From positions 256,001 to 320,000 of the forward strand of contig CAWBOC010000006.1 of the NCBI GenBank assembly GCA_963790305.1: a stretch of 64,000 bases of DNA, read 5' to 3'. This document shows, piece after piece, positions 14,322 to 29,857 of the stretch. Origin of the DNA: an uncultured Gemmatimonadaceae bacterium (GTDB lineage Bacteria > Gemmatimonadota > Gemmatimonadetes > Gemmatimonadales > Gemmatimonadaceae). Position numbers and translations under genes: made by a program. Numbering within the stretch: the stretch's first letter is position 1; each line of letters begins with the position of its first letter. The notes under the pieces are model-generated. The model had not been told where the DNA came from, did no database searches, and saw only the letters and a program-made list of their open reading frames with translations.

Positions 14322-15790
14322 CTCACCCGCCCGCGTACGAACTCGACGAATGTCCCAACCGGTACGCCCGTGGGCCCCTTCGGAAGCGCGACGAGATCCG
14401 TCTCCGAGTACGCCGTTCCGGCAATGTCGAGATGGACCCAGGGATAGCTGTCAGTGAATTCCTTGAGGAACATGGCTGCCGCGATAGCGCCAGCAGCACG
14501 CCCTCCGGAATTCTTGATGTCGGCGACGTCCGACTTGTTGAGCTCCTTGTAGTCCTCCCACGTCGGGAGGTGCCACCCCGGTTCGCTCGCGCGCTTTCCA
14601 GCGCCTAACACCTCCTGCACGAGCGCCTCGTCGTTTCCGAAGACCCCCGAGGCAGTGTGTCCCAGCGCGATGACGCACGCACCCGTGAGCGTGGCCGCGT
14701 CGAGCACCGCGGCGGGCTCGTAGCGACGCGCCCACGACAACACGTCGCACAACACGAGTCGCCCCTCGGCGTCGGTGTTGACGATCTCAATGTACTTCCC
14801 GAGATGGCTCTTGAGAACGTCACCGGGCTTGAAGGCGGTCCCGCTCGGCATGTTCGTGGTGCTGCCGACGAGCCCGATGACGTTGGCCTTGAGCTCCAGG
14901 CGGCCAATCGCGTCCATCGCGCCAAGCACCGCCGCGGCGCCGCACATGTCGAACTTCATCAGCTCCATGCTCTGCGCCGGCTTGATCGAGATGCCACCGG
15001 AATCGAAGCACAGGCCTTTCCCCACCAACACCACCGGACGCCCGGAGCCGCGCCGATGCTCGAGCGCGATGAGCTTGGGATCCTGCGGCGTCCCCTGGGC
15101 GACGCCGAGAAAGGAGCCCATTCCCTCCTCTTCGAGCTCCTTGCGGCCGAGCACGGTGACCTTCATGCCGTGGCGCTTGGCGATCTCGCGACCCGTATCG
15201 GCGAGGTAGTCGGGCGTGCACAGATTGCCCGGCATCATCGCGAGCCGTCGCGCCAGCGTCATCCCCTCGGCGATCGCGACGCCCGTCTCGACCTCCGCCT
15301 TCGCCCGCTTCTCATCCTGCACGACGACGACCGCCTCGTCAGGCGAGGGACGCTGCTCATCGTCTGGTGGCGGCGTTTTGGTCTCCGTGTATTCCCACAC
15401 GCCCATGGAAAGGCCGACCACCGCGCCCTCGACGCTTCCCGCCGCGCCGTCCTGATACCACGCGATCTCCCGGGCCCCGGTCCGCCGAGCGAAGCGAGCA
15501 GCGATCATCGCGGCGCGCCGGAGCGCACCGCCGGACTCGGTCACGGTCCCCATGCCGACGAGCAGAATCCGTTGCGGACCCTTCGTGCCACCGACGAGAT
15601 GCATCGTCTCATCCCGGCCGAAACGAAAATCCCGCCGATCGATGACCCGGGAGATCGCTCCGCCGAGTGCGTCGTCGAGTCCCTTGATGGCGTCGTCGAG
15701 CTTGGCGCCCTTGGCCAGCGGAAGAACGAGAAGCGGAACGTCGAGCGAGCGGAGCTGTCCGCCGCGAACGGAGAAGCGCAACGGGCTCAC
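14318..15790 (-). CDS. pepA: Leucyl aminopeptidase (M17)
   Basis: [38 protein letters not shown]. Confidence 0.96.
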
Positions 15791-17031
15791 GCCATGCCCT
15801 CGATGATGGCATCGGCGAATGCCGACGTGCTGACTTCGGTGGACCCGGGCATCTGGCGGGCGAGATCGTACGTCACGCGCCGCGACTTGATGGCATGCTC
15901 GATCCCTTTGACGATGAGTCGCCCGACCTCATCCCACTCGAGATACTCGAACATCATGACGCCCGAGAGGATGACGCTGCAGGGATTGACCTTGTCCTGA
16001 CCGGCGTATTTCGGCGCGGTGCCGTGCGTCGCCTCGAAGCACGCGAGACCATCGCCGACGTTGCCCCCTGGCGCCATACCCAGCCCGCCAACCTGGGCCG
16101 CGGCCGCGTCACTCAGGTAGTCGCCATTCAGGTTGGGCGTCGCGATCACGGAATACTCCGACGGGCGCAGCAGCAGCTGCTGGAACATGGCGTCGGCAAT
16201 GCGGTCCTTGATGACGAGACAATCGACCTTCGCGCTGCCGCTGATCTTCGCGAGATCGGCTTCGCTGATCACGTGCTCGCCGTAGCGTTCCTTCGCGACT
16301 TCGTAGCCCCAGTCACGAAAGGCGCCCTCGGTGAACTTCATGATGTTGCCCTTGTGGACGAGGGTCACCGACTGGCGGCCGGTTCTCAAGGCATAGCGGA
16401 TCGCCATGTCGACGAGGCGCTTCGAGCCGAACTCGGACATCGGCTTGATCCCAATGGCCGAACCTTCGCGGATGTCCTTGCCCATCGTGTCGACAATGAA
16501 GTCGCGAACGCGCTTCGCTTCCTCGCTGCCCGCCTTCCACTCGATGCCGGCGTAGACGTCCTCGATGTTCTCGCGGAAGATCACGACGTCGACCTTTCCC
16601 GGCTCCTTGACCGGCGCTCCGACGCCCTCGAAGTAACGCACTGGGCGAATGCAGGCGTAGAGGTCCAGCACCTGTCGCAGCGTCACGTTGAGCGACCGAA
16701 TGCCACCGCCCACGGGCGTGGTGAGAGGACCCTTGATCGAGACGCGAAACTCCTGCATCGCGTCGATGGTCTCCTGAGGCAGCCAATCGTTGTGCGCCTT
16801 GAACGCCTTCTCGCCAGCGAACACCTCCATCCAGGCAACACGGCGCTTCCCGCCGAACGCGCGCTCCACCGCGGCGTCGAAGACGCGTCGTGAGGCGCGC
16901 CAGATATCGGGTCCCGTCCCATCGCCTTCAATGAACGGGATGATCGGTGCGTCGGGAACGTTCAGCTTTCCATGGGAGAAGCCGATGCGCTCGCCATTCC
17001 GCGGCACTGTGGCGAATCGGTAGCTGGTCAT
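15787..17031 (-). CDS. icd: NADP-dependent isocitrate dehydrogenase
   Basis: [56 protein letters not shown]; own ATG at 17031. Confidence 0.96.
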
Positions 17032-17096
17032 GACTCGATCAGGGAGAGATGGCGCGCGAGCGCGGTCTACGGCCCGCCCGCGCGCGGAATGCGTGC

Positions 17097-18249
17097 CTAA
17101 CGTCGCTGATCGAGCGGCGACACCCGCAACCCACGCGGTCCGACATACTCGGCGCGCGGCCGAATCAGCCGGTTGTTCGCATACTGCTCCAGCAGGTGGG
17201 CCGCCCATCCCGACAGCCGGCTGACCGCGAACAACGGTGTGTACAGGTCGGTCGGAATCCCCATCACGTAGTACGTGGACGCCGAGTAGAAGTCGACGTT
17301 CGGGAGCAGGTTCTTCTCGGCTTTCATCGTTTCCTCGATGCGCCGCGACATCTCGAACCATTGCGGCGTCTTGTACTTGCTGCCGAGCTCCTCCGACATC
17401 CGGCGCAAATGCGTCGCGCGCGGATCTTCGGTTTTGTACACGCGGTGGCCAAAGCCCATGATCTTGCGCTTGCTCGCGAGGGCTTTCTTGATGAAGGGCA
17501 CCGGCTCCTCGCCTTCCTTCTTCATCTCGAGGAGCATTTCCATCACGGCGGTGTTGGCGCCGCCGTGCAGCGGACCCGAGAGCGTTCCGATCGCCGAGAC
17601 GATAGCGGCGTACATGTCGGCGAGCGTCGCGGCGGTCACGCGCGCGGCGAACGTCGAGGCGTTGAGCTCGTGATCGGCGTGGAGAATGAGCGCCGCATCG
17701 ATCGCCCGCTCTTCGAGCTTCTCCGGACGTCTGCCGAGCAGCCGGTAGTACACGTTGCCGGCAAAGGAAAGCGAGCGGATCGGCCTTGATCGGTTCCTTA
17801 CCCTGACGAATCTGCGCCCACGCTCCAAGAAGCGCCGCGATTTGTCCCTGAAGTCTCGCGGCGCGCCGCAGGTTCGCGGTGCGATCATCGACGGGAGACT
17901 GCTTGTCGGGATCGTAGAACGAGAGCTCGGACACGCTTGTCCGCAGGACGTCCATGGGGTCGGCGTCCCTCGGGTAGCGTTTGAGCGATTCGATGAGCGC
18001 CTGCGGGAGGAGGTAGCAGGAGCGAATCGTCTCCGCGAATCCGTCGAGCTCGGCTCGCGACGGGAGCTTGCCGTACCAGAGCAGGTAGACGACTTCCTCG
18101 AACGTCGTGTTCTCGACGAGATCGTGGATGTCGTACCCGCGATAGATGAGCTGGCCCGTCTGGCCGTTGACGTCGGTGATTTCGGACGGGCCGGTGACCA
18201 CATCTTCGAGGCCGGCCGCGGCCGCCTTTACGGTTGCCGAAGTTGCCAT
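17097..18249 (-). CDS. gltA: Citrate synthase (GltA/PrpC family); one extra base near 17776, probably a sequencing error
   Basis: N-terminal frame [20 protein letters not shown]-terminal frame [33 protein letters not shown]; removing one C restores DPSLSFAGN. Confidence 0.9.
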
Positions 18250-20255: not shown

Positions 20256-20274
20256 GTGCGGATTCCAGGCGTCC

Positions 20275-20323
20275 TTGACTTCGCCCCCGCGCCCTGGGTA
20301 CGTTCACACCGAACGCTCGTTCG
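20275..20323 (+). promoter_or_regulatory. Sigma70 promoter plus TetR/PaaR-type operator
   Basis: TTGACT-N18-TACGTT (20275-20304), then palindrome CGAACG-CT-CGTTCG (20310-20323) at the expected transcription start. Confidence 0.7.
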
Positions 20324-20345
20324 ACACCCGGTTCCAGGGGGGCGG

Positions 20346-20972
20346 ATGGCTCACCAGCAGGCGCACGACGAGAAGCTCGACGCACTCCTGGCGGCCGCCG
20401 CCCGCGTCTTCGCCAAGCGCGGCTACCACGAAACGAGCATGCGCGACCTCGCCCGCGAATCGGGGGTCTCGCTCTCCGGCCTCTACTACTACGTCAAGAG
20501 CAAGGACGAGCTGCTCTTCCTGATCCAGGACCGCAGCTTCGCGGCTGTCCTCGCGAGCATGGAAGAGGCCACGGCCGGGATCGAGAACCCGGTCGAGCGC
20601 CTGGCCCGCTTCGTCGACAACCACCTCGACTATTTCGCGTCGCACATGGCAGAGATGAAGGTGCTGTCGCACGAGTCGGGTGCGCTTTCGGGAGAGATGC
20701 TCTCGCAGGTGAACGCCAAGAAGCGGGAGTATACGCGAGTCCTGATGGATATTCTCGCCGACGTCGAGCGGACCTGCGGCGCGGCGCACGTGAATCGCCG
20801 AATTGCGACCTACACGCTCTTCGGCATGATGAACTGGATCTACAACTGGTACGATCCTCTCGGCGATCTCAGTGTCGAGGTGTTGAGCCAGAGCATCTGC
20901 CGGCTCTTCCTCGGCGGGTATGTCGGGATGCCGGTGTCGGAGTCGGTTATGCCACACATGACGGCGGGATAG
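20346..20972 (+). CDS. TetR family regulator (PaaR/KstR2-like)
   Basis: AARVFAKRGYHETSMRDLA..SGLYYYVKSKDELL HTH; GMMNWIYNWYDP C-terminal motif. Confidence 0.9.
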   Translation: MAHQQAHDEKLDALLAAAARVFAKRGYHETSMRDLARESGVSLSGLYYYVKSKDELLFLIQDRSFAAVLASMEEATAGIENPVERLARFVDNHLDYFASHMAEMKVLSHESGALSGEMLSQVNAKKREYTRVLMDILADVERTCGAAHVNRRIATYTLFGMMNWIYNWYDPLGDLSVEVLSQSICRLFLGGYVGMPVSESVMPHMTAG

Positions 20973-21021
20973 CACTCAGCTCGTTCCCGCGCACGCAGCA
21001 GCTTTTCACCAGAGGAATCCC

Positions 21022-21837
21022 ATGGCCACAGCCACCATGACCGAGCGCGAAGCGACCACCCTCGTTCGGTACCGCAAGGAGGGGCACGTCGCGATCTTCG
21101 AGCTCGATGATCCGCCGGCCAACACGTACACGCACGAGATGATGCGCCAGCTCGACGACTGCATCCTCCGCGCGCGTTTCGATGGCGACATTCACGTGAT
21201 CATCCTGCGGGGTGCGGGCGAGAAGTTCTTCAGCGCCGGCGCCAACATCAAGATGCTCAACGAGGCCGATCCGACCTGGAAGTACTACTTCTGCCTCCAC
21301 GCCAACGAGACGTTGAGCCGCCTCGAGCAGACCCCCAAGCTGGTGATCGCGGCGCTCAACGGCCACTGCGTCGGCGGCGGGCTCGAGATCGCCATGGCGG
21401 CGGACATTCGCATCGCCCGCCAGGACGCGGGGAAGATCGGTTTGCCCGAAGTCAACCTTGGCGTGCTGCCGGGCACGGGCGGGACACAGCGTCTCGCGCG
21501 GCTCATTGGCAAGGCGAAGGCGATCGAGCTCATGGTGACAGGGCGCACCTTCTCCTTCGAGGAAGCCGAGAAGATGGGGCTGGTCAACGCCGTGCTGCCG
21601 AAGGAGGACTGGTGGGACAACGTCCTCCTCTACGCCCAGCAGTTCACGCTGCCGAACAAGGCGGCGATGGCGGTGGGTCACATCAAGCGGTCGGTGCAAT
21701 CGGGGCTCGAGATGGCGTTCGAGTATGGGCTGTCGCTCGAGCGTGAGCTGCAGAGCCAGCTCTTCAAGAGCAGCGACGCCAAGGAAGGCATCGGAGCCTA
21801 CGTCGAAAAGCGGCAGCCACGCTTTCAGGGCCGCTGA
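21022..21837 (+). CDS. Crotonase-family protein resembling the N-terminal catalytic domain of BoxC (epoxybenzoyl-CoA dihydrolase)
   Basis: FSAGANIKML...WKYYFCLHANET, GGGLE, LPEVNLGVLPGTGG; the GANI-x-ML/WK-xx-FC-xxx-NET pattern is BoxC-like (recalled). Confidence 0.75.
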   Translation: MATATMTEREATTLVRYRKEGHVAIFELDDPPANTYTHEMMRQLDDCILRARFDGDIHVIILRGAGEKFFSAGANIKMLNEADPTWKYYFCLHANETLSRLEQTPKLVIAALNGHCVGGGLEIAMAADIRIARQDAGKIGLPEVNLGVLPGTGGTQRLARLIGKAKAIELMVTGRTFSFEEAEKMGLVNAVLPKEDWWDNVLLYAQQFTLPNKAAMAVGHIKRSVQSGLEMAFEYGLSLERELQSQLFKSSDAKEGIGAYVEKRQPRFQGR

Positions 21838-21839
21838 CC

Positions 21840-23306
21840 ATGGGCGCCGGCGTCGCGACCGAGACGCTTCCCACGCGGCTGTTCATCAACGGTGAGCAGC
21901 TGGAAGCCGCGGAGGGTCGAACCCATGACGTGATCAATCCGGCGACGGAGGAAGTGATCGCCTCGGTCGCGGCCGCCGGCGAGGGGGACGTCGATCGTGC
22001 GGTTCGCAGCGCACGCGCCACGTTCGAGTCGGACAAATGGCGAAAGACGAGCGCGCGTCAACGAGGCGAAGCGGTCTACCGCCTCGGCGAGCTGATTCTC
22101 AAGAACAAGGACGAGCTTGCCCGCCTCGAGACGCTGAACAACGGCAAGCCCGTCTTCGAGTCGATGATCGACGTGCGTCTCGCTGCCGCCACATACAAAT
22201 ACTATGGCGGCTGGGCGGACAAGATCCACGGGGAGACGATCCCCGTGGACGGACCGTTCCTGAACTACACGTTGCGGGAGCCGTTAGGCGTCGTCGGAGC
22301 GATCGTTCCCTGGAACTTTCCGATTTCGCTGGCCGCGTGGAAGGTGGCACCGGCGCTCGCCTGCGGTAACACCGTCGTGTTGAAGCCCGCCGAGCTCACG
22401 CCGTTCACGGCGATTCGAATGGCGGAGCTCGCCATCGAGGCAGGATTGCCGCCGGGCGCCTTCAACTGCATTCCCGGTCCAGGCTCGGTCGCCGGTAACG
22501 CGCTCGTCACGCATTCCGACGTCGACAAGATCGCCTTCACGGGCAGTACCGAGGTCGGGAAGCAGATCATGCGGGACGCGGCGGGAACGGTAAAGAAGAT
22601 TTCGCTCGAGCTGGGCGGGAAATCGCCGAACATCGTTTACGCGGACGCCGATCTCGACGCCGCGGCTCGCGGCGCCCTGACGGGAATTTTCTACGGCAAG
22701 GGTGAGGTCTGCGCGGCGGGATCGCGACTGCTCGTCGAGGACAGCGCTGCCGAGGAGATGCGCACGCGCATTCTCGAGCGGGCGAAGAAGATGGTAGCAG
22801 GCGATCCCCTTGACCCGAAGACCCGCCTCGGCGCGCTCGTCTCGAAGAAGCAGATGGACCGCGTGCTCGGCTATATCGAAAGCGGCAAGTCCGAGGGCGC
22901 GACGCTGCTGAGCGGTGGCGCCCGCACACCCGTGAATGGCAAAGGGTACTTCGTGCAGCCGACGGTGTTCGAGGGCGTCGAGCGCGAGATGACGATCGCG
23001 CGCGAAGAAATCTTCGGTCCCGTGCTGGCGATGATGACGTTCAGCGACGGCATGACGGGCGCCACGGAGCTGGCGAACGCGACGATCTACGGGCTCGCCG
23101 CGGGAATCTGGACGCGCGACATCAAGAAGGCCCTGCGCACCGCGCGGGAAATCCGCGCAGGCACGGTGTGGATCAACACGTACAACATGTACGACGCGGC
23201 CTCCCCGTTCGGCGGGTTCAAGCAGTCGGGTTTCGGCCGCGACCTCGGCGTGCACGCGCTCGAGGGGTACATGCAGGTCAAGTCGGTGTGGGTAGATCTT
23301 TCATGA
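21840..23306 (+). CDS. NAD(P)-dependent aldehyde dehydrogenase
   Basis: PWNFP, KPAE, FTGSTEVG, LELGGKSP, catalytic Cys in GEVCAAG, EEIFGPV. Confidence 0.95.
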   Translation: MGAGVATETLPTRLFINGEQLEAAEGRTHDVINPATEEVIASVAAAGEGDVDRAVRSARATFESDKWRKTSARQRGEAVYRLGELILKNKDELARLETLNNGKPVFESMIDVRLAAATYKYYGGWADKIHGETIPVDGPFLNYTLREPLGVVGAIVPWNFPISLAAWKVAPALACGNTVVLKPAELTPFTAIRMAELAIEAGLPPGAFNCIPGPGSVAGNALVTHSDVDKIAFTGSTEVGKQIMRDAAGTVKKISLELGGKSPNIVYADADLDAAARGALTGIFYGKGEVCAAGSRLLVEDSAAEEMRTRILERAKKMVAGDPLDPKTRLGALVSKKQMDRVLGYIESGKSEGATLLSGGARTPVNGKGYFVQPTVFEGVEREMTIAREEIFGPVLAMMTFSDGMTGATELANATIYGLAAGIWTRDIKKALRTAREIRAGTVWINTYNMYDAASPFGGFKQSGFGRDLGVHALEGYMQVKSVWVDLS

Positions 23307-23401: not shown

Positions 23402-24613
23402 ATGTCCGTTATGCGCGAAGACGTCTTCCTCATCGACGCCGTTCGCACGCCCATCGGTCGTCACGGTGGCGTGCTGGCGCGGATGCGGCCCGATGATCTT
23501 GCGGCGACGGCGATCGCTGAGCTCGTCAAGCGCAGCGGCGTGGAGCCGTCGAGCATCGACGACGTCATTCTTGGGTGCGCCAATCAGGCCGGCGAGGATA
23601 CGCGCAACGTGGCCCGCATGGCGCTGCTCCTCGCCGGGCTCCCGGTCGAAGTGCCGGGCCAAACGGTGAATCGACTGTGTGGCTCGGGGCTTCAGGCTCT
23701 CGCCAGCGCCTCCCAGGCGATTCGTGCGGGAGAAGGCGACGTCTTCATCGCCGGCGGCGTGGAGAGCATGTCGCGCGCGCCCTGGGTGATGCTCAAGCCC
23801 GAGGATGGGTTTTCGCGCACGCTGCCCGCCATGGCGGACACGACGATCGGGTGGCGTTTCGTCAATCCGAGAATGCCGCGCGAGTGGACGATCTCCCTGG
23901 GCGAAACAGCCGAGGAGGTCGCGCGCTGCTACGGGGTCACGCGCGAGGAGCAGGATGCCTTCGCCCACGAGAGCCAGCAGCGCACCAAGCGGGCGCTCGA
24001 GGAGGATCGCTTCCGGGATGAGCTCGTTCCCGTGGAGGTCGTCACCAGGAGCGGAAAGACGGTGGTCGAGCGCGATGAGCATCCGCGACCCGAGACGACA
24101 CTCGAGACGTTGCGTGGGATGCGACCGGCGTTCGTAAAAGAGGGTGGAACCGTCACCGCCGGCTCGTCGAGTGGAATCAACGACGGGGCCAGCGCCGCCC
24201 TCGTGATGTCCGCTGACGCCGCGAAGCAGCTTGGGCATAAGCCCCTCGCGCGGATTGTCGCCACCGCGGTGGCCGGCGTCGCACCGAACGTGATGGGCAT
24301 TGGACCCGTACCCGCCACACGTCGCGTCCTCGAACGCGCCGGTCTCACCATCGACGACATTGATCTCATCGAGCTCAACGAGGCCTTCGCATCGCAGGCG
24401 ATCGCGTGTATCCGTCAGCTCGGCGCCGACCCGGACCGTGTCAACGTCAACGGCGGGGCGATCGCGCTCGGGCATCCGTTAGGCGCCTCGGGGGCACGCA
24501 TCGTCACGACGCTCGCGCACGAGCTGCGGCGCCGGGAAAAGCGGTACGGCCTGGCGACGATGTGCATCGGGGTCGGTCAAGGCATTGCGACGGTGCTGGA
24601 GCGCGTCACGTGA
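23402..24613 (+). CDS. pcaF: 3-oxoadipyl-CoA thiolase-like acetyl-CoA C-acyltransferase (PcaF/PaaJ type)
   Basis: [53 protein letters not shown]. Confidence 0.88.
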
Positions 24614-25404
24614 CGTACGAACAGATCCTGCTCAATCGCTCGGAAGGCATCGGGACGCTCACGCTCAACCGGCCCGACAAGCTCAACGCGTTTGCCGGGC
24701 GGATGCGCCAGGAGATTGCCGACGGCCTCGATGAGCTGGAGAAGGATGATTCCGTTCGGGTGATCGTCATTACCGGCGCCGGCCGCGGATTTTGCGCCGG
24801 GGGCGACGTCACGTACATGGGCGAGCTCGTCGAGCGCCGCGATGTGGAGTCGATGGCCGCGCTCGTCGATGCTGGACGTCACGTCGTCATGACGATCCGA
24901 AACTCTCGCAAGCCAGTGATCGCGAGTGTCAACGGAGTCGCCGCGGGGGGCGGCGCAAATCTCGCCCTTGCCTGTGACCTCCGAATCGCCAGCGAGCTCG
25001 CGAGCCTCGGGCAAACGTTCAACCGCATCGGCCTGCATCCCGATTGGGGAGGCACCTACTTCCTGCCCCGACTCGTCGGGCCGGCGAAGGCACTCGAGCT
25101 GTTCTGGTTCGCCGACATGATCGATGCGCGGGAGTGCGAGCGCCTCGGCCTGTTCAACAAGGTGGTCCCACACGCATTGCTCGTCGATGCGACACGCGCA
25201 TGGGCGCGCACGCTCGCGAGCAAGCCGGGTCTCGCGATCGCCTTGGCGAAGCGTGCCGTGTATGACTCGCCCGATCGCACGCTGCCGCAGATGCTGGACT
25301 ACGAGCTCGACGCACAGCTTCGGTGCTTCGAGAGCGGAGACGCAGGCGAAGGAATCCGCGCCTTCAGCGAGAAGCGCGCGGCACAGTTCGGAGCAGCCCG
25401 TTAG
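24610..25404 (+). CDS. Enoyl-CoA isomerase, PaaG-like crotonase
   Basis: [17 protein letters not shown] (no catalytic Glu), GLHPDWGG (Asp). Confidence 0.8.
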
Positions 25405-25425: not shown

Positions 25426-26592
25426 ATGGCAATGGCGAAGATTGGCAACTTTGACGACTGGATCGACCTGTTCAAGTTCTGGCAGGACGACATTGGTCTC
25501 CAGGTATCCGAGCTCAAGAACTACAAGTTCGACGTGAAGCTCGGCGAGCTCGAGGTGCCGGAGATCGAATTCGGCCACTACAAGGGGCAGCGGAAATGGC
25601 CGACGATCATGCACATCCCCGATCAGCGAATTCGAGATGCGCTGCAGAACCTGATCATCTTCCAGGGCGACACGGAGTTCGCCTCGGTGGAGCAGCAGCG
25701 TAGCCTGCTGCAGAATGCGCCGTCGGACTACGACCTGCTCTCGATCTATCGCGTGATGGCGGAGGAGATGCGCCACGGATGGCAGATGTCGTATCTCCTG
25801 GTGGCGCATTTCGGCGACGAGGGAAAGCGCGAGGCCGAGAAGCTGCTGGAGCGCCGCGCCGATGAGCACGAGCGGTTACTGGGCTCGTTCAACGAAGCGG
25901 TGGAGAACTGGCTCGACTTCTTCGCCTACACTCAGTTCATCGACCGCGACGGCAAGTATCAGCTGCAGATGCTCTCGACGTCGGCGTTCGCGCCGCTGTC
26001 CCGCTCGATGAAGCCGATGCTGAAGGAGGAGTCATTCCACCTCGGCACCGGGAACAACGGGTTGCTCCGCATCATCAAGGCGCGGCGGATCCCGACCGAT
26101 ATCATCCAGCGGTACCTGAACAAATGGGTGTCGACCGCGTTCGATCTCTTTGGCACCGACCAGTCATCGTCCGCCCAGTGGGCGTACGTCTGGGGACTGA
26201 AGGGACGGTTCGACGAGCGTACCAACGCGCAGCCTGCGGACGAGCGCAAGCTCAACGAGCACGCGCGCGAGCTGTATCGCCAGGAAGTGTCGGGACTGAT
26301 CGAGCGCCTGAACCAGCATATCCCCGCCGATCAGGTAAAGCTCAAGATCCCGAGCGAGAAGTTCAACCGGCGCATTGGCATCTGGAAAGGACAGACCTTC
26401 ACCGTCGATGGTGAGCCGATCGAGCGCGAGAAGTACAAGGAGTACGTCGCCTCGGTCACGCCGACGGCACAGGACCGCGCGTTCCTGGCCGACGTGTTCA
26501 AGGAGCGCGACTGGATCCTCGAGAAGAAGGTGGATGAGAAGGAGCGGGAGTGGCTCGCCGGGCCCTCCTCCGGAGGCGGCGCGGTGAATTGA
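25426..26592 (+). CDS. boxB: BoxB-like diiron aromatic-CoA epoxidase (ferritin-like, PaaA/BoxB family)
   Basis: QGDTEFASVEQQ, EEMRH, LLERR, DRDGKYQL, EESFH, GLKGRF; strong AGGAGG ribosome-binding site at 25411-25416. Confidence 0.85.
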   Translation: MAMAKIGNFDDWIDLFKFWQDDIGLQVSELKNYKFDVKLGELEVPEIEFGHYKGQRKWPTIMHIPDQRIRDALQNLIIFQGDTEFASVEQQRSLLQNAPSDYDLLSIYRVMAEEMRHGWQMSYLLVAHFGDEGKREAEKLLERRADEHERLLGSFNEAVENWLDFFAYTQFIDRDGKYQLQMLSTSAFAPLSRSMKPMLKEESFHLGTGNNGLLRIIKARRIPTDIIQRYLNKWVSTAFDLFGTDQSSSAQWAYVWGLKGRFDERTNAQPADERKLNEHARELYRQEVSGLIERLNQHIPADQVKLKIPSEKFNRRIGIWKGQTFTVDGEPIEREKYKEYVASVTPTAQDRAFLADVFKERDWILEKKVDEKEREWLAGPSSGGGAVN

Positions 26593-27297
26593 GCCGCTCC
26601 CCGGAGCTGATCGGCCATCGCGGCGCGCCGCGCGAGCGCCCGGAGAACACGCTTGCCTCGTTTCTCCGGGCGCTCGATTTGGGTGCGGACGCCGTCGAGC
26701 TCGATGTCCATGCGACGCGCGATGGCGTCGTCGTCGTGCATCACGATTTCGTTCCGCGAGCGGAGTCGAGCGTGGCCGCACTCGGCGGACGCCCAATAGC
26801 GGAGCTCACCGCGGCCGACCTCGGCACGTTTCAAGTGGCCGGGGAGCCGATCCCGACGCTTGCCAGCGTGCTCGAAGCGATTGGTGGGCGAGCAACGGTG
26901 TACGTCGAGATCAAGGGGCGGGACATTGAAGAGGCAGTCATTGCGACCATCGAGAGCGCTCCCTCCGCCGAGGCGGGTCGCGGTGCACTCATTCGATCAC
27001 CGCGCTGTGGTGCGCACCCGCACGATGCGGCCGGACCTTCCCTCGGGAATTCTGTCGGCGTCATATCTCATCGACCCACAGGGCGCGCTGCGCGCGGCGA
27101 AGGCGCGCGACTATTGGCAGGAAGGATCGATGGTCGATGAGGCGCTCGTCGACGCGATCCACGATGCCAAGGGGCGCGTGATCGCCTGGACCGTGAACGA
27201 CCCCGAGCGCGCGCGTCGCCTCGCATCGATTGGCGTCGACGGCATCTGCACCGATGTGCTGCAGGTCATAGGGCCCGCGCTCGCGAGCACATCGTGA
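26589..27297 (+). CDS. Glycerophosphodiester phosphodiesterase family protein; one frameshift near 26973
   Basis: GHRGA..PENT, VELDVHATRDG..HHD, VEIK, then second frame HSFD...AWTVND..GVDGICTD. Confidence 0.85.
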
Positions 27298-28158
27298 CCA
27301 TTCGTCGCATTGCCGTGATTGGGGCAGGCACGATGGGGCATGGTATCGCGTACGTCGCCTCGGCCGCGGGCTACGAGGTTCGCCTGGCCGACGCGGATGC
27401 GGCGACGCTCGCCACCGGGATGCGAGAGGATTCGCGAAGCGTTCGACAAGGCGATCGAGCGCGGAAAGGCGACGGCGGCCTCGCGAGACGAAGGGCTGAG
27501 ACGCCTCACGAGCGCCGGCAGCGCCGGCGAGGCTGCGCGGGACGCGGATCTCGTCATCGAGGCGGTGCCGGAGCGGCTCGAGCTCAAACAGTCGATCTTC
27601 CGGGAGCTCGAACGGTCGGTTTCCACCGAGGCGATCCTGGGCAGCAACACGTCGTCGCTCTCGATCACGCGGATTGCTGACGGTCTGGCGCACCCGGGGC
27701 GCGTGGTTGGCCTGCACTTCTTCAATCCCGTCCCGGTGATGAAGCTGCTCGAGATCGTCCGTGGGGAGCGCACGAGTGAGGGCGTCGTCGACAGCGCGCG
27801 GACCTTCGCGACCTCGCTTGGCAAGACAGCGATCCTCGTGCGCGATACTCCCGGATTCGCGACGAGCCGGCTCGGCGTCGTGCTGGGGCTCGAGGCCATT
27901 CGCATGCTCGAGCAGGGCGTCGCGTCGGCGGAGGACATTGACCGCGCGATGGAGCTGGGATACAATCATCCGATGGGACCGCTACGGCTGACCGACGTGG
28001 TCGGGCTCGATGTCCGTCTCGCGATCGCCGAGCATCTGTACGCGACACTGAAGGACGACACGTACAACCCCCCTGCCCTGCTTCGTCGCCTGGTGAGTGA
28101 AGGGAAGTTAGGCAAGAAGACGGGACGAGGATTCTACTCCTGGGAGAATGACCGATGA
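27294..28158 (+). CDS. 3-hydroxyacyl-CoA dehydrogenase; one frameshift near 27423
   Basis: VIGAGTMGHGIA, then IEAVPE, SNTSSLS, GLHFFNP, HPMGPL, GKLGKKTGRGFY. Confidence 0.9.
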
Positions 28159-28937
28159 CCGAACCGGAAGTCGTTCTTCTCGAGCAGCGTGGCCGCGTAG
28201 CGCTGGTAACGATGAATCGGCCGGAGAAGCGTAACGCGCTCGACGGTCAAATGCGGTGCGCGTTTCTCGGCGTCATGGATCGCGTTCGGCGCGACACGAA
28301 CACTCGGGCCGTCGTGGTCACCGGCGCCGGTGACAAGGCGTTCATCGCGGGCGCCGACATCAGCGAGTTCGAGGGGCGGTCACCCGTCGATCAATACCGC
28401 GTCATGCGCCTTCCCACCGTGTTCGACGCGATCGAGCGATTCCCGAAGCCGGTGATCGCCGCCGTGAACGGGTTCTGCCTTGGCGGCGGAATGGAGCTCG
28501 CACTCGCGTGCGACATTCGCCTCGCCTCGGCCAACGCCAAGTTCGGGCAACCGGAGGTCAACCTCGGCATCATCCCCGGCGGTGGTGGCACGCAGCGATT
28601 GCCCCGCATCATCGGGCTCGGTCACGCACTGCGACTGATCCTCACCGGCGACATGATCACGGCCGACGAGGCGCTGCGACTTGGGCTCGTGTCGGAGGCA
28701 GTTCCGGGCGACGTGCTACTCGACCGCGCGATCGCGATCGGCGAGCTGATCGCGTCGAAGAGTCCCGTGGCCGTTGCCGCCGCGAAGGAGGCGACGCGCG
28801 CGTCAATGAGCCTGCCGCTCGACGAAGGGCTGCGTCTCGAGACGGCGCTCTTCCAGCTCTGCTTCTCGAGTGAGGACAAGGCGGAAGGGGTGCGAGCGTT
28901 TCTGGAGAAGAGGGCGGCGAACTTCACGGGGCGATGA
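28155..28937 (+). CDS. Enoyl-CoA hydratase (PaaF/Crt type)
   Basis: AGADI, GGGMELA and QPEVNLG (both catalytic Glu present). Confidence 0.9.
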   Translation: MTEPEVVLLEQRGRVALVTMNRPEKRNALDGQMRCAFLGVMDRVRRDTNTRAVVVTGAGDKAFIAGADISEFEGRSPVDQYRVMRLPTVFDAIERFPKPVIAAVNGFCLGGGMELALACDIRLASANAKFGQPEVNLGIIPGGGGTQRLPRIIGLGHALRLILTGDMITADEALRLGLVSEAVPGDVLLDRAIAIGELIASKSPVAVAAAKEATRASMSLPLDEGLRLETALFQLCFSSEDKAEGVRAFLEKRAANFTGR

Positions 28938-29857
28938 GGAAGATCGAAGGCGGAATTCGGAATGCGGATTCGGAATCGGCAGGCATCCTTCCGCATTCCG
29001 CATTCCGTATTACGGACTGCCACATCCACATCCAGCCCTGGCGGCAGCTCAAGCCCGCCGTGATGGAGACCATGCGGCGCGGCAAGGAGGATCGCTTCGA
29101 GTTCCTGCTCGCGCTGATGGACGATCCCAAGCTCCTGCTTCGGATCATGGATGAGGAGGGCATCGACCGCGTCGGCATGGTGAACTATCCGAGCCCTGAT
29201 CTCATGGGGTTCACCAACGACACCAACGACTTCGCCGCTCGTTATGCGGAAGCGGACCCACGCCGGTTGATTCCCTACGGTGGCGTACACCCGCGTTTCG
29301 CCAAGGATGCAGCCGGTGAGGTGCGGCGACTCGTCGAGCTGGGCGTTCGGATGCTCAAGATTCATCCAAACCACCAATGCTTCCCCGCCAACGCGTACAC
29401 CGAAGGGCTCGATGCACTCGGCGTGTTGTACAAGGCGTGCGAGGATCACGGGCTGCCGGTCATGATTCACACCGGGACGAGCATCTTTCCGGGGGCGCGA
29501 AGCAAATGGGGAAATCCGATGGAGATGGATGACGTCGCCATCGACTTCCCGGACCTGCCCCTGGTGATGGCGCACGGCGGACGCCCGCTGTACATGGCCG
29601 AAGCGTTCTTCATCCTCCGGCGGCATAAACGCGTCTGGCTCGATCTCTCGGGAATTCCGCCGAAGGGCCTCCTCGGATACTTCCCGCGCATCGCCGAGCT
29701 CGAGGCGCAGCTGCTGTGGGGGACGGACTGGCCAAGTCCGGGTGTCGAGAGCATGCGCCGCAACGTCGATGACTTCCTCGGGCTGGCGCTGCCCGAGAGC
29801 ATCAAGCGCGCGGCGCTGGAGACAAATCCCGAGCGGCTACTACCCACGACAGTCTGA
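28934..29857 (+). CDS. Amidohydrolase_2 family metal-dependent hydrolase or decarboxylase
   Basis: DCHIH, LKIHP, IHTG, AHGG, WGTDWP. Confidence 0.85.
   Translation: MRKIEGGIRNADSESAGILPHSAFRITDCHIHIQPWRQLKPAVMETMRRGKEDRFEFLLALMDDPKLLLRIMDEEGIDRVGMVNYPSPDLMGFTNDTNDFAARYAEADPRRLIPYGGVHPRFAKDAAGEVRRLVELGVRMLKIHPNHQCFPANAYTEGLDALGVLYKACEDHGLPVMIHTGTSIFPGARSKWGNPMEMDDVAIDFPDLPLVMAHGGRPLYMAEAFFILRRHKRVWLDLSGIPPKGLLGYFPRIAELEAQLLWGTDWPSPGVESMRRNVDDFLGLALPESIKRAALETNPERLLPTTV
28946..29011. repeat. Degenerate heptamer inverted repeat inside the 5' coding region of the amidohydrolase
   Basis: GAAGGCG-GAATTCG-GAATGCG-GATTCG... paired with TTCCGCA-TTCCGCA-TTCCGTA. Confidence 0.8.

Follow-up and report, generated by a model that had tools for sequence, protein, structure and literature searches.

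We find that a gene in a 64,000-nucleotide stretch of DNA from an uncultured Gemmatimonadaceae bacterium (the window, meaning the whole stretch analysed) encodes a complete, half-size relative of BoxC that likely opens the oxygen-activated ring of benzoyl-CoA. This predicted activity is based on conserved residues, on the fold, on relatedness to BoxC and on a ring epoxidase being present wherever the gene occurs, and on these grounds we propose with moderate confidence that the 271-aa crotonase is a stand-alone 2,3-epoxybenzoyl-CoA dihydrolase. No assayed member of its family was found in the literature, and among the entries listed by full-text literature searches none described a single-domain BoxC; short homologues may be mentioned in the primary papers on BoxC and BoxB.

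A complete single-domain gene with BoxC active-site residues

The reading frame at 21022-21837 on the forward strand encodes 271 aa followed by a stop codon. It is preceded by a ribosome-binding-like AGAGGA at 21011-21016, and an aldehyde dehydrogenase (ALDH) gene starts 2 nt past its stop; a scan for promoters and terminators gave results at chance level. The translation contains GANIKML, WKYYFCLHANET, GGGLE and LPEVNLGVLPGTGG, confirming the motifs and the two Glu read in the original prediction. Compared with its closest relative (locus L015) the frame has zero indels, and in 80/80 GTDB loci the stop falls at the equivalent of residue 271. The half size is therefore real: a truncation or frameshift artefact is ruled out, and the claim of a stand-alone single domain stands. 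The gene and its key residues are as follows.

21022..21837, forward strand: single-domain BoxC-type crotonase, 271 aa (reading frame, profile, alignment, model, comparison of loci)
21238..21249, forward strand: GANI segment G73-I76, at the oxyanion-hole position as in BoxC (N75 in 93/100 loci)
21289..21312, forward strand: FCLHANET helix, in which Glu96 corresponds to BoxC Glu116 (alignment)
21292-21294, forward strand: Cys91, corresponding to BoxC Cys111 (alignment; 100/100 loci)
21385..21387, forward strand: Glu122, corresponding to BoxC Glu146 (alignment; 100/100 loci)
21448..21450, forward strand: Glu143, corresponding to BoxC Glu168 (alignment; 100/100 loci)

Bains et al. 2009 are said to have proposed Cys111, Glu146 and Glu168 as the catalytic residues of BoxC. 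In our alignment, with residue numbering fixed via one full-length BoxC-type protein aligned to the BoxC structure 2W3P, these three residues of the N-domain are matched by Cys91, Glu122 and Glu143. The BoxC motif cited in the original prediction is correct: 2W3P has GANIFML...WKVNFCKFTNET, its Cys being residue 111, and in the same alignment its E146 and E168 fall on the two Glu motifs. GANI, FCxxxNET, GGGxE and LPE...LPGTGG fall in register with nine full-length BoxC-type proteins, and F90, C91, E96, E122, E143 and PGTGG are invariant in 100/100 family loci. FCxxxNE occurs in 13/13 BoxC N-domains and 17/19 rows of the 271-aa crotonase family versus 0/53 generic crotonases; these counts and the invariant residues argue that the match is not due to chance. 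Two other parts of the predicted signature did not hold up as diagnostic marks and were dropped: the W of WK, as W86 occurs in only 8/100 family loci and F takes its place in 91/100, and GANI, which only 25/119 Bacillota-type relatives carry although 118/119 keep FCxxxNE. A review (PMC4498308) describes BoxC as having an active centre with two Glu in its N-domain only, these two Glu as the same pair found in any ordinary hydratase, and BoxC as a partner of BoxB in a complex.

The best homologues of the 271-aa crotonase (best 120 of 8000 scored) are from Gemmatimonadaceae and annotated as enoyl-CoA hydratase, the label that had been anticipated. Some longer homologues appear to combine the 271-aa-type domain with a TetR, ALDH or epoxidase domain from the neighbourhood, or are extended in other ways. 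Family members P0143-P0161, of 478-542 aa, have a C-terminal PF05157 domain attached via a low-complexity linker.

Family profiles and predicted fold

The protein is a member of the crotonase superfamily (PF00378, ECH_1; 196.9 bits versus a cut-off of 27), and the NCBIfam profile search placed it over the cut-off of no family. For instance, it scores 83.1 bits on the BoxC family TIGR03222 (cut-off 712.3), matching model positions 43-174 only, and lacks the two tandem domains of about 550 aa by which BoxC is defined. Scores also fall under the cut-off for the alternative oxepin-CoA hydrolase NF046063 (128.9 bits versus 300), for PaaF NF007239 (172.7 versus 371) and for PaaG TIGR02280 (135.1 versus 345), and the two Glu are kept, with no Asp replacement. 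We conclude that the 271-aa crotonase is not a TIGR03222 BoxC member and probably works like BoxC.

The predicted model (pLDDT 96) has the full crotonase fold including the C-terminal helices. Its best match in a fold search is 2PPY (TM 0.93, 46% identity, rmsd 1.2 across 259 residues; Z 37.5 against 35.5 for the runner-up), which is also the best match in a PDB sequence search at 237 bits; 2W3P ranks 41st there, behind 2PPY and generic hydratases. Single-domain crotonases rank first in the fold searches, and 2W3P is not among the matches listed for either the full model or its 198-residue core. By analogy with other crotonases, the protein is probably a homotrimer or hexamer.

The 2PPY entry, with six chains, is GK1992 of Geobacillus kaustophilus, deposited as 'enoyl-CoA hydratase'; no function for it was found in the literature searched. 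It is the closest solved relative of the 271-aa crotonase and has the sequence FCLFCNET, whereas it carries GADI in place of GANI and belongs to a separate Bacillota branch that is closer to BoxC. A Geobacillus strain reportedly degrades benzoate via benzoyl-CoA (Zaar et al. 2001).

Kinship to the BoxC N-domain

We compared the 271-aa crotonase to profiles of the BoxC N- and C-domains built from 19 full-length BoxC proteins. On the N-domain profile it scores 109.9 bits and two Geobacillus relatives 128-131, versus a median of 56.6 and a maximum of 88.2 for 53 generic crotonases, in a comparison where the BoxC set and most generic crotonases had been collected as matches of the 271-aa crotonase or its relative P0271. 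On the C-domain profile it is top of 92 targets at 71.8 bits (generic maximum 39.8). Profile-profile alignment with hhalign gives the same order for the N-domain (271-aa family 228, PaaF-like 161, PaaG-like 119) and the C-domain (103, 90 and 30, respectively), and the preference on the C-domain is modest given 103 versus 90 for the PaaF-like family. When full-length BoxC is the query, 2PPY scores 101 bits, against 68 for the crotonase ranked next. The original prediction had set generic best matches without affinity to the BoxC N-domain as the outcome that would speak against it. Forward searches do return generic best matches, and TIGR03222 gives 83/712 bits; reverse searches, in contrast, put the family first, and the specific affinity to the N-domain is upheld.

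A 105-row quick tree unites BoxC-N with the 271-aa family, with proteins of the Geobacillus and Thermus types and with one unassigned row (SH-aLRT 98). BoxC sits on a long branch in this tree, and this explains why generic crotonases come above BoxC in forward searches. We then grafted BoxC-N on all 101 backbone branches of a tree of 59 of the 105 rows. Using all core columns, a weight of 0.99 falls inside the family and every placement among generic crotonases is rejected; with the signature columns removed, the weight inside the family is 0.95 and 15/54 generic placements are not rejected. BoxC-N attaches most favourably next to Geobacillus-type rows. A tree constrained to a family clade excluding BoxC is not rejected and is 8.9 log units better (p-AU 0.78).

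Based on these sequence comparisons, kinship of the 271-aa crotonase to BoxC is likely, and the placement test favours BoxC being nested inside the family. We read the protein as a cousin of BoxC, not its ancestor. Of the suggestion that it is ancestral, at most the single-domain architecture survives, as BoxC attaches best beside the Geobacillus-type branch and not beside the branch of the 271-aa crotonase. A gene of the wider family was probably duplicated in tandem, with loss of the C-terminal active site, to yield canonical BoxC. A second related two-domain crotonase family (P0257, P0285, P0287, P0290, P0329 and P0376; 430-473 aa) has GGVNI, no Cys and a degenerate C-domain whose end resembles that of the 271-aa crotonase, and is apparently an independent duplication.

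Overall, BoxC and the 271-aa crotonase share GANI, FCxxxNET with its Cys, both Glu, LPGTGG and a BoxB-type epoxidase partner, with 36% profile identity to the N-domain. They differ in length (556 aa for BoxC versus 271) and architecture, the 271-aa crotonase being one domain with canonical C-terminal helices. Additionally, no BoxA was found in the genome of the latter, and its family also partners a PaaABCD-like epoxidase.

A putative gene cluster for oxidative ring cleavage

In the window, the cluster reads TetR, 271-aa crotonase, ALDH, PcaF-like thiolase, PaaG-like crotonase, short BoxB, phosphodiesterase, 3-hydroxyacyl-CoA dehydrogenase, PaaF-like hydratase and Amidohydro_2. Linkage counts refer to the 80 best of 452 GTDB loci, some of them on short contigs.

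20256..20972, forward strand: TetR-family regulator at the cluster head, read from the first possible start (linked in 58/80 loci)
21840..23306, forward strand: aldehyde dehydrogenase of the general ALDH type, no recognisable BoxD (linked in 42/80 loci)
23402..24613, forward strand: PcaF/PaaJ-like 3-oxoadipyl-CoA thiolase (577 of 597 bits)
24610..25404, forward strand: PaaG-like crotonase with the Asp of PDWGG (linked in 13/80 loci)
25426..26592, forward strand: short BoxB-like di-iron epoxidase, 388 aa (TIGR03225, 246 of 499 bits; best PDB match 3PER; linked in 66/80 loci)
27294..28158, forward strand: 3-hydroxyacyl-CoA dehydrogenase, split between two frames by a net extra base near 27425 (versus L015)
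28155..28937, forward strand: PaaF-like two-Glu enoyl-CoA hydratase (profile, alignment)
28934..29857, forward strand: Amidohydro_2 protein (linked in 35/80 loci)

The short BoxB, 3.6 kb downstream of the 271-aa crotonase, is under the TIGR03225 cut-off and retains the BoxB segments QGDTExxS, ExxH, DRDG and EExxH. Its second PDB match is 4MUD, a 235-aa 'ring oxidation complex' protein, and the control genome of Sulfolobus acidocaldarius also matches TIGR03225. The ALDH resembles general and phenylacetaldehyde dehydrogenases and may oxidise the ring-opened semialdehyde; the PaaG-like crotonase may act as a dehydroadipyl-CoA isomerase. The Amidohydro_2 gene stays near the cluster in both Gemmatimonadota and Acidobacteriota. 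The phosphodiesterase gene (26550-27297) is also read in two frames, with a net extra base near 26960 versus L015, and both two-frame readings are probably assembly errors. Elsewhere in the window, at 15787-18249 on the reverse strand, citrate synthase-like and isocitrate dehydrogenase-like frames (named from their translations) merge across frames, which suggests an indel.

In the mechanism that we propose, the short BoxB would epoxidise benzoyl-CoA using O2 and an electron donor, and the 271-aa crotonase would bind the CoA ester so that the GANI oxyanion hole holds its carbonyl. The epoxide, or the corresponding oxepin, would be hydrated by Glu122 and Glu143, and a second water molecule would split off formate with the participation of Cys91, giving 3,4-dehydroadipyl-CoA semialdehyde. 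This would be BoxC chemistry acting on 2,3-epoxybenzoyl-CoA. The benzoyl-CoA would probably be supplied from 4-hydroxybenzoyl-CoA by an unlinked Hcr-like enzyme.

This Hcr-like enzyme is found elsewhere in the source genome, which is 94% complete:

G000:C10:354168-358166, reverse strand: Hcr-like trimer, stand-alone Mo/FAD/FeS, unlinked (852 of 995 bits; also locus L214)

The best match of this copy is 1RM6 at 625 bits, with the next at 263. The trimer could be the substrate source and, speculatively, the missing electron donor. At this completeness, searches of the genome for a full BoxC, BoxA, PaaE, a second epoxidase and a clear benzoate ligase were all negative, with only short ferredoxin-like matches (best 34 bits) for BoxA. 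The sole TIGR02262 match over its cut-off (389 bits) sits in an anthranilate-type cluster. An anthraniloyl-CoA-type cluster at G000:C9:767800-774995 comprises monooxygenase-like, crotonase, acyl-CoA dehydrogenase, ligase and RidA-like genes, with labels read partly from translations.

Strict co-occurrence with one of two ring epoxidases

The gene for the 271-aa crotonase is present in 70 of a sample of 151 Gemmatimonadota genomes (the G040 copy is a contig-edge fragment). These 70 divide, with no overlap and no exception, into 34 genomes with a short BoxB and 36 with a divergent PaaA-like epoxidase, counted at >=63% (that is, at least 63%) identity to the protein of locus L106. The predicted tie to a ring epoxidase is thus borne out both by linkage (short BoxB in 66/80 loci) and by the presence of one epoxidase type in each of the 70 genomes. 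None of the 70 carries canonical BoxC, and the sole genome with canonical BoxB and BoxC among the 151 is without the 271-aa crotonase gene. HcrB-like genes occur in 66/151 genomes, all of them among the 70 and mostly unlinked; HcrA-like genes are found in 31/80 loci, one over the curated cut-off, and 21 regions around Hcr-like genes showed no conserved neighbours. PaaZ is found in 30 of the 151 genomes, canonical PaaA in 30 and HppD in 61, in each case with none among the 70. Related genomes are not independent, so the nominal p-value is an overstatement; both states occur within families f1 and f2. The strict pairing with one of two ring-oxidising enzymes points to a widespread putative aromatic degradation route.

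In Acidobacteriota (121 genomes; the phylum of locus L037), the gene is present in 34/121, including the unpublished genome G174, and HppD in 28/121. The exclusion of HppD is not reproduced there, as five genomes carry both genes versus 7.9 expected (p = 0.23), and is therefore not general. An HmgA profile at E 1e-30 matched 0/151 Gemmatimonadota genomes and was uninformative. PaaK-like matches occur in only 3/70 genomes with the gene (G007, G051 and, weakly, G058). Among PaaZ genomes they occur in only 7/30, which suggests that phenylacetyl-CoA is made without the ligase there. Families of aromatic lyases, 2-oxoacid oxidoreductases and CoA-transferases failed to distinguish three genomes carrying the gene from two lacking it, and the common benzoate-ligase-family matches of 440-500 bits that were inspected lie in anthranilate-type clusters.

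The epoxidase that replaces the short BoxB in 36 genomes is represented by:

L106:10495-12804, reverse strand: PaaA/D/B/C-like epoxidase (G037; also loci L107, L115 and L120-L124)

The L106-type PaaA-like protein reaches 129 of 280 bits, under the PaaA cut-off, and no reductase is linked in the loci read. Its first helix reads QGDTELMS or QADTELMS, as in BoxB, versus QHAHSEIVG in canonical PaaA. In three inspected loci the PaaA-like genes lie inside the operon that elsewhere holds the short BoxB; otherwise they are mostly elsewhere in the genome.

More distant relatives occur in comparable settings. A Thermus plasmid carries a 45%-identical crotonase without the Cys, next to a gene of the benzoate-CoA ligase family (588 bits) and a second PaaA/C set. 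A similar crotonase without the Cys is found on plasmid pHTUR01 of Haloterrigena turkmenica (locus L258, 429303-452085) beside a PaaA-like set (57% to that of L106), with two UbiD decarboxylases, a CoA-transferase, a ligase, a ferredoxin and a formate dehydrogenase as neighbours; this cluster is a candidate archaeal aromatic dicarboxylate route. Both contexts, single loci of a different branch, fit benzoyl-CoA and formate, and they transfer only loosely because their crotonases are without the Cys. No Bacillota copy was found on the plasmids searched, and a metagenome scan with P0271 returned mostly generic crotonases.

Alternative explanations

The main rival, to which we give a modest chance, is that the protein is an oxepin-CoA hydrolase which, with the adjacent ALDH, replaces PaaZ in the phenylacetyl-CoA route (epoxidase, PaaG-like isomerase, hydrolase, ALDH, PaaJ, PaaF, PaaH). 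PaaZ and the 271-aa crotonase are mutually exclusive in the Gemmatimonadota sample: the 30 genomes with PaaZ and canonical PaaA include 0 of the 70, which fits a functional replacement. Additionally, the window operon holds every Paa-type activity, including the Asp-bearing PaaG-like protein, and 36 genomes pair the gene with a PaaA/D/B/C-like enzyme. However, linkage to the PaaG-like gene is limited to 13/80 loci, and no Asp-type PaaG appears among the 10 best of 34 crotonase matches in five genomes of family f7. The pocket helices of the epoxidase are BoxB-like, and the rival leaves the invariant BoxC Cys and the link to Hcr unexplained; the product of Hcr is benzoyl-CoA, not phenylacetyl-CoA. 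PMC9007349 describes a crotonase-type alternative oxepin-CoA hydrolase, proposed from genetic data, and PaaZ as using a different hydratase family. PaaZ, NF046063 and, as proposed here, the 271-aa crotonase all open an epoxide-derived CoA ester by hydrolysis, with an ALDH acting next; the 271-aa crotonase differs from both in its BoxC motif and scores 129 of 300 bits on NF046063.

A second alternative, which we regard as rather unlikely, keeps the BoxC-like ring opening and assigns it to a substituted benzoyl-CoA epoxide (hydroxy-, amino- or methyl-), or has the C1 unit released other than as formate. In the alignment, the short BoxB differs from BoxB at F206 (to Y) and T210 (to I), positions that we take to line the pocket. 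The conserved Amidohydro_2 gene has no explained role, no entry ligase is linked, and the source genome carries the anthranilate-type CoA cluster. Against a substituted substrate, the near-perfect tracking with the Hcr-like enzyme points to unsubstituted benzoyl-CoA, and the downstream genes fit the oxidation of a C6 dicarboxylyl-CoA.

It is improbable that the 271-aa crotonase is an ordinary enoyl-CoA hydratase for a downstream step, for example the hydration of dehydroadipyl-CoA, and that another protein opens the ring. Like PaaF and the classical two-Glu hydratases, it has a canonical fold with C-terminal helices, a single-domain size and both canonical Glu, and its best matches are generic. 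However, the operon already holds a PaaF-like hydratase, and both epoxidase types have the 271-aa crotonase, not this hydratase, as their constant partner. None of the 53 generic crotonases contains FCxxxNE, the classical hydratases lie outside the supported group of the 271-aa family and BoxC-N, and searches of the 70 genomes gave no further candidate for ring opening (BoxC, PaaZ). Finally, although both crotonases lie in one operon, we reject as exceedingly improbable a split BoxC in which the 271-aa protein is the N-half and needs the 24610-25404 crotonase as the C-half (the original prediction had proposed modelling a complex of the two): the 24610-25404 crotonase scores -0.7 bits on the BoxC C-domain profile, its family has a 12% hhalign probability to this domain, it is linked in 13/80 loci, and the 271-aa crotonase has full C-terminal helices of its own.

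Implications

Beyond the dihydrolase activity itself, we tentatively offer a broader reading, which is possible and rather less than probable. The 271-aa crotonase may be the ring-opening hub of an unrecognised, BoxA-free benzoyl-CoA epoxide pathway, fed by an Hcr-type dehydroxylase and served by two interchangeable di-iron epoxidases. One would be the short BoxB, the other a PaaABCD-like enzyme that carries a phenylacetate oxygenase annotation and would epoxidise benzoyl-CoA. In Gemmatimonadota this pathway would stand in for both HppD and Paa in processing the carbon of tyrosine and phenylalanine. Geobacillus 2PPY would supply the ring-cleavage enzyme so far missing from benzoate degradation by thermophiles, and canonical BoxC would be a tandem duplicate of the family.

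If the proposed function is correct, BoxC-type ring cleavage would be far commoner than annotation shows, with the gene, labelled enoyl-CoA hydratase, in 70/151 Gemmatimonadota and 34/121 Acidobacteriota genomes, both abundant soil groups. A class of 'PaaA' annotations would be probable benzoyl-CoA epoxidases, and the orphan structure 2PPY would gain a testable function in culturable Geobacillus, Brevibacillus and Paenibacillus. The 271-aa crotonase would also provide a minimal enzyme with which to ask what the cysteine of BoxC does and whether the second domain of BoxC serves only as a scaffold.
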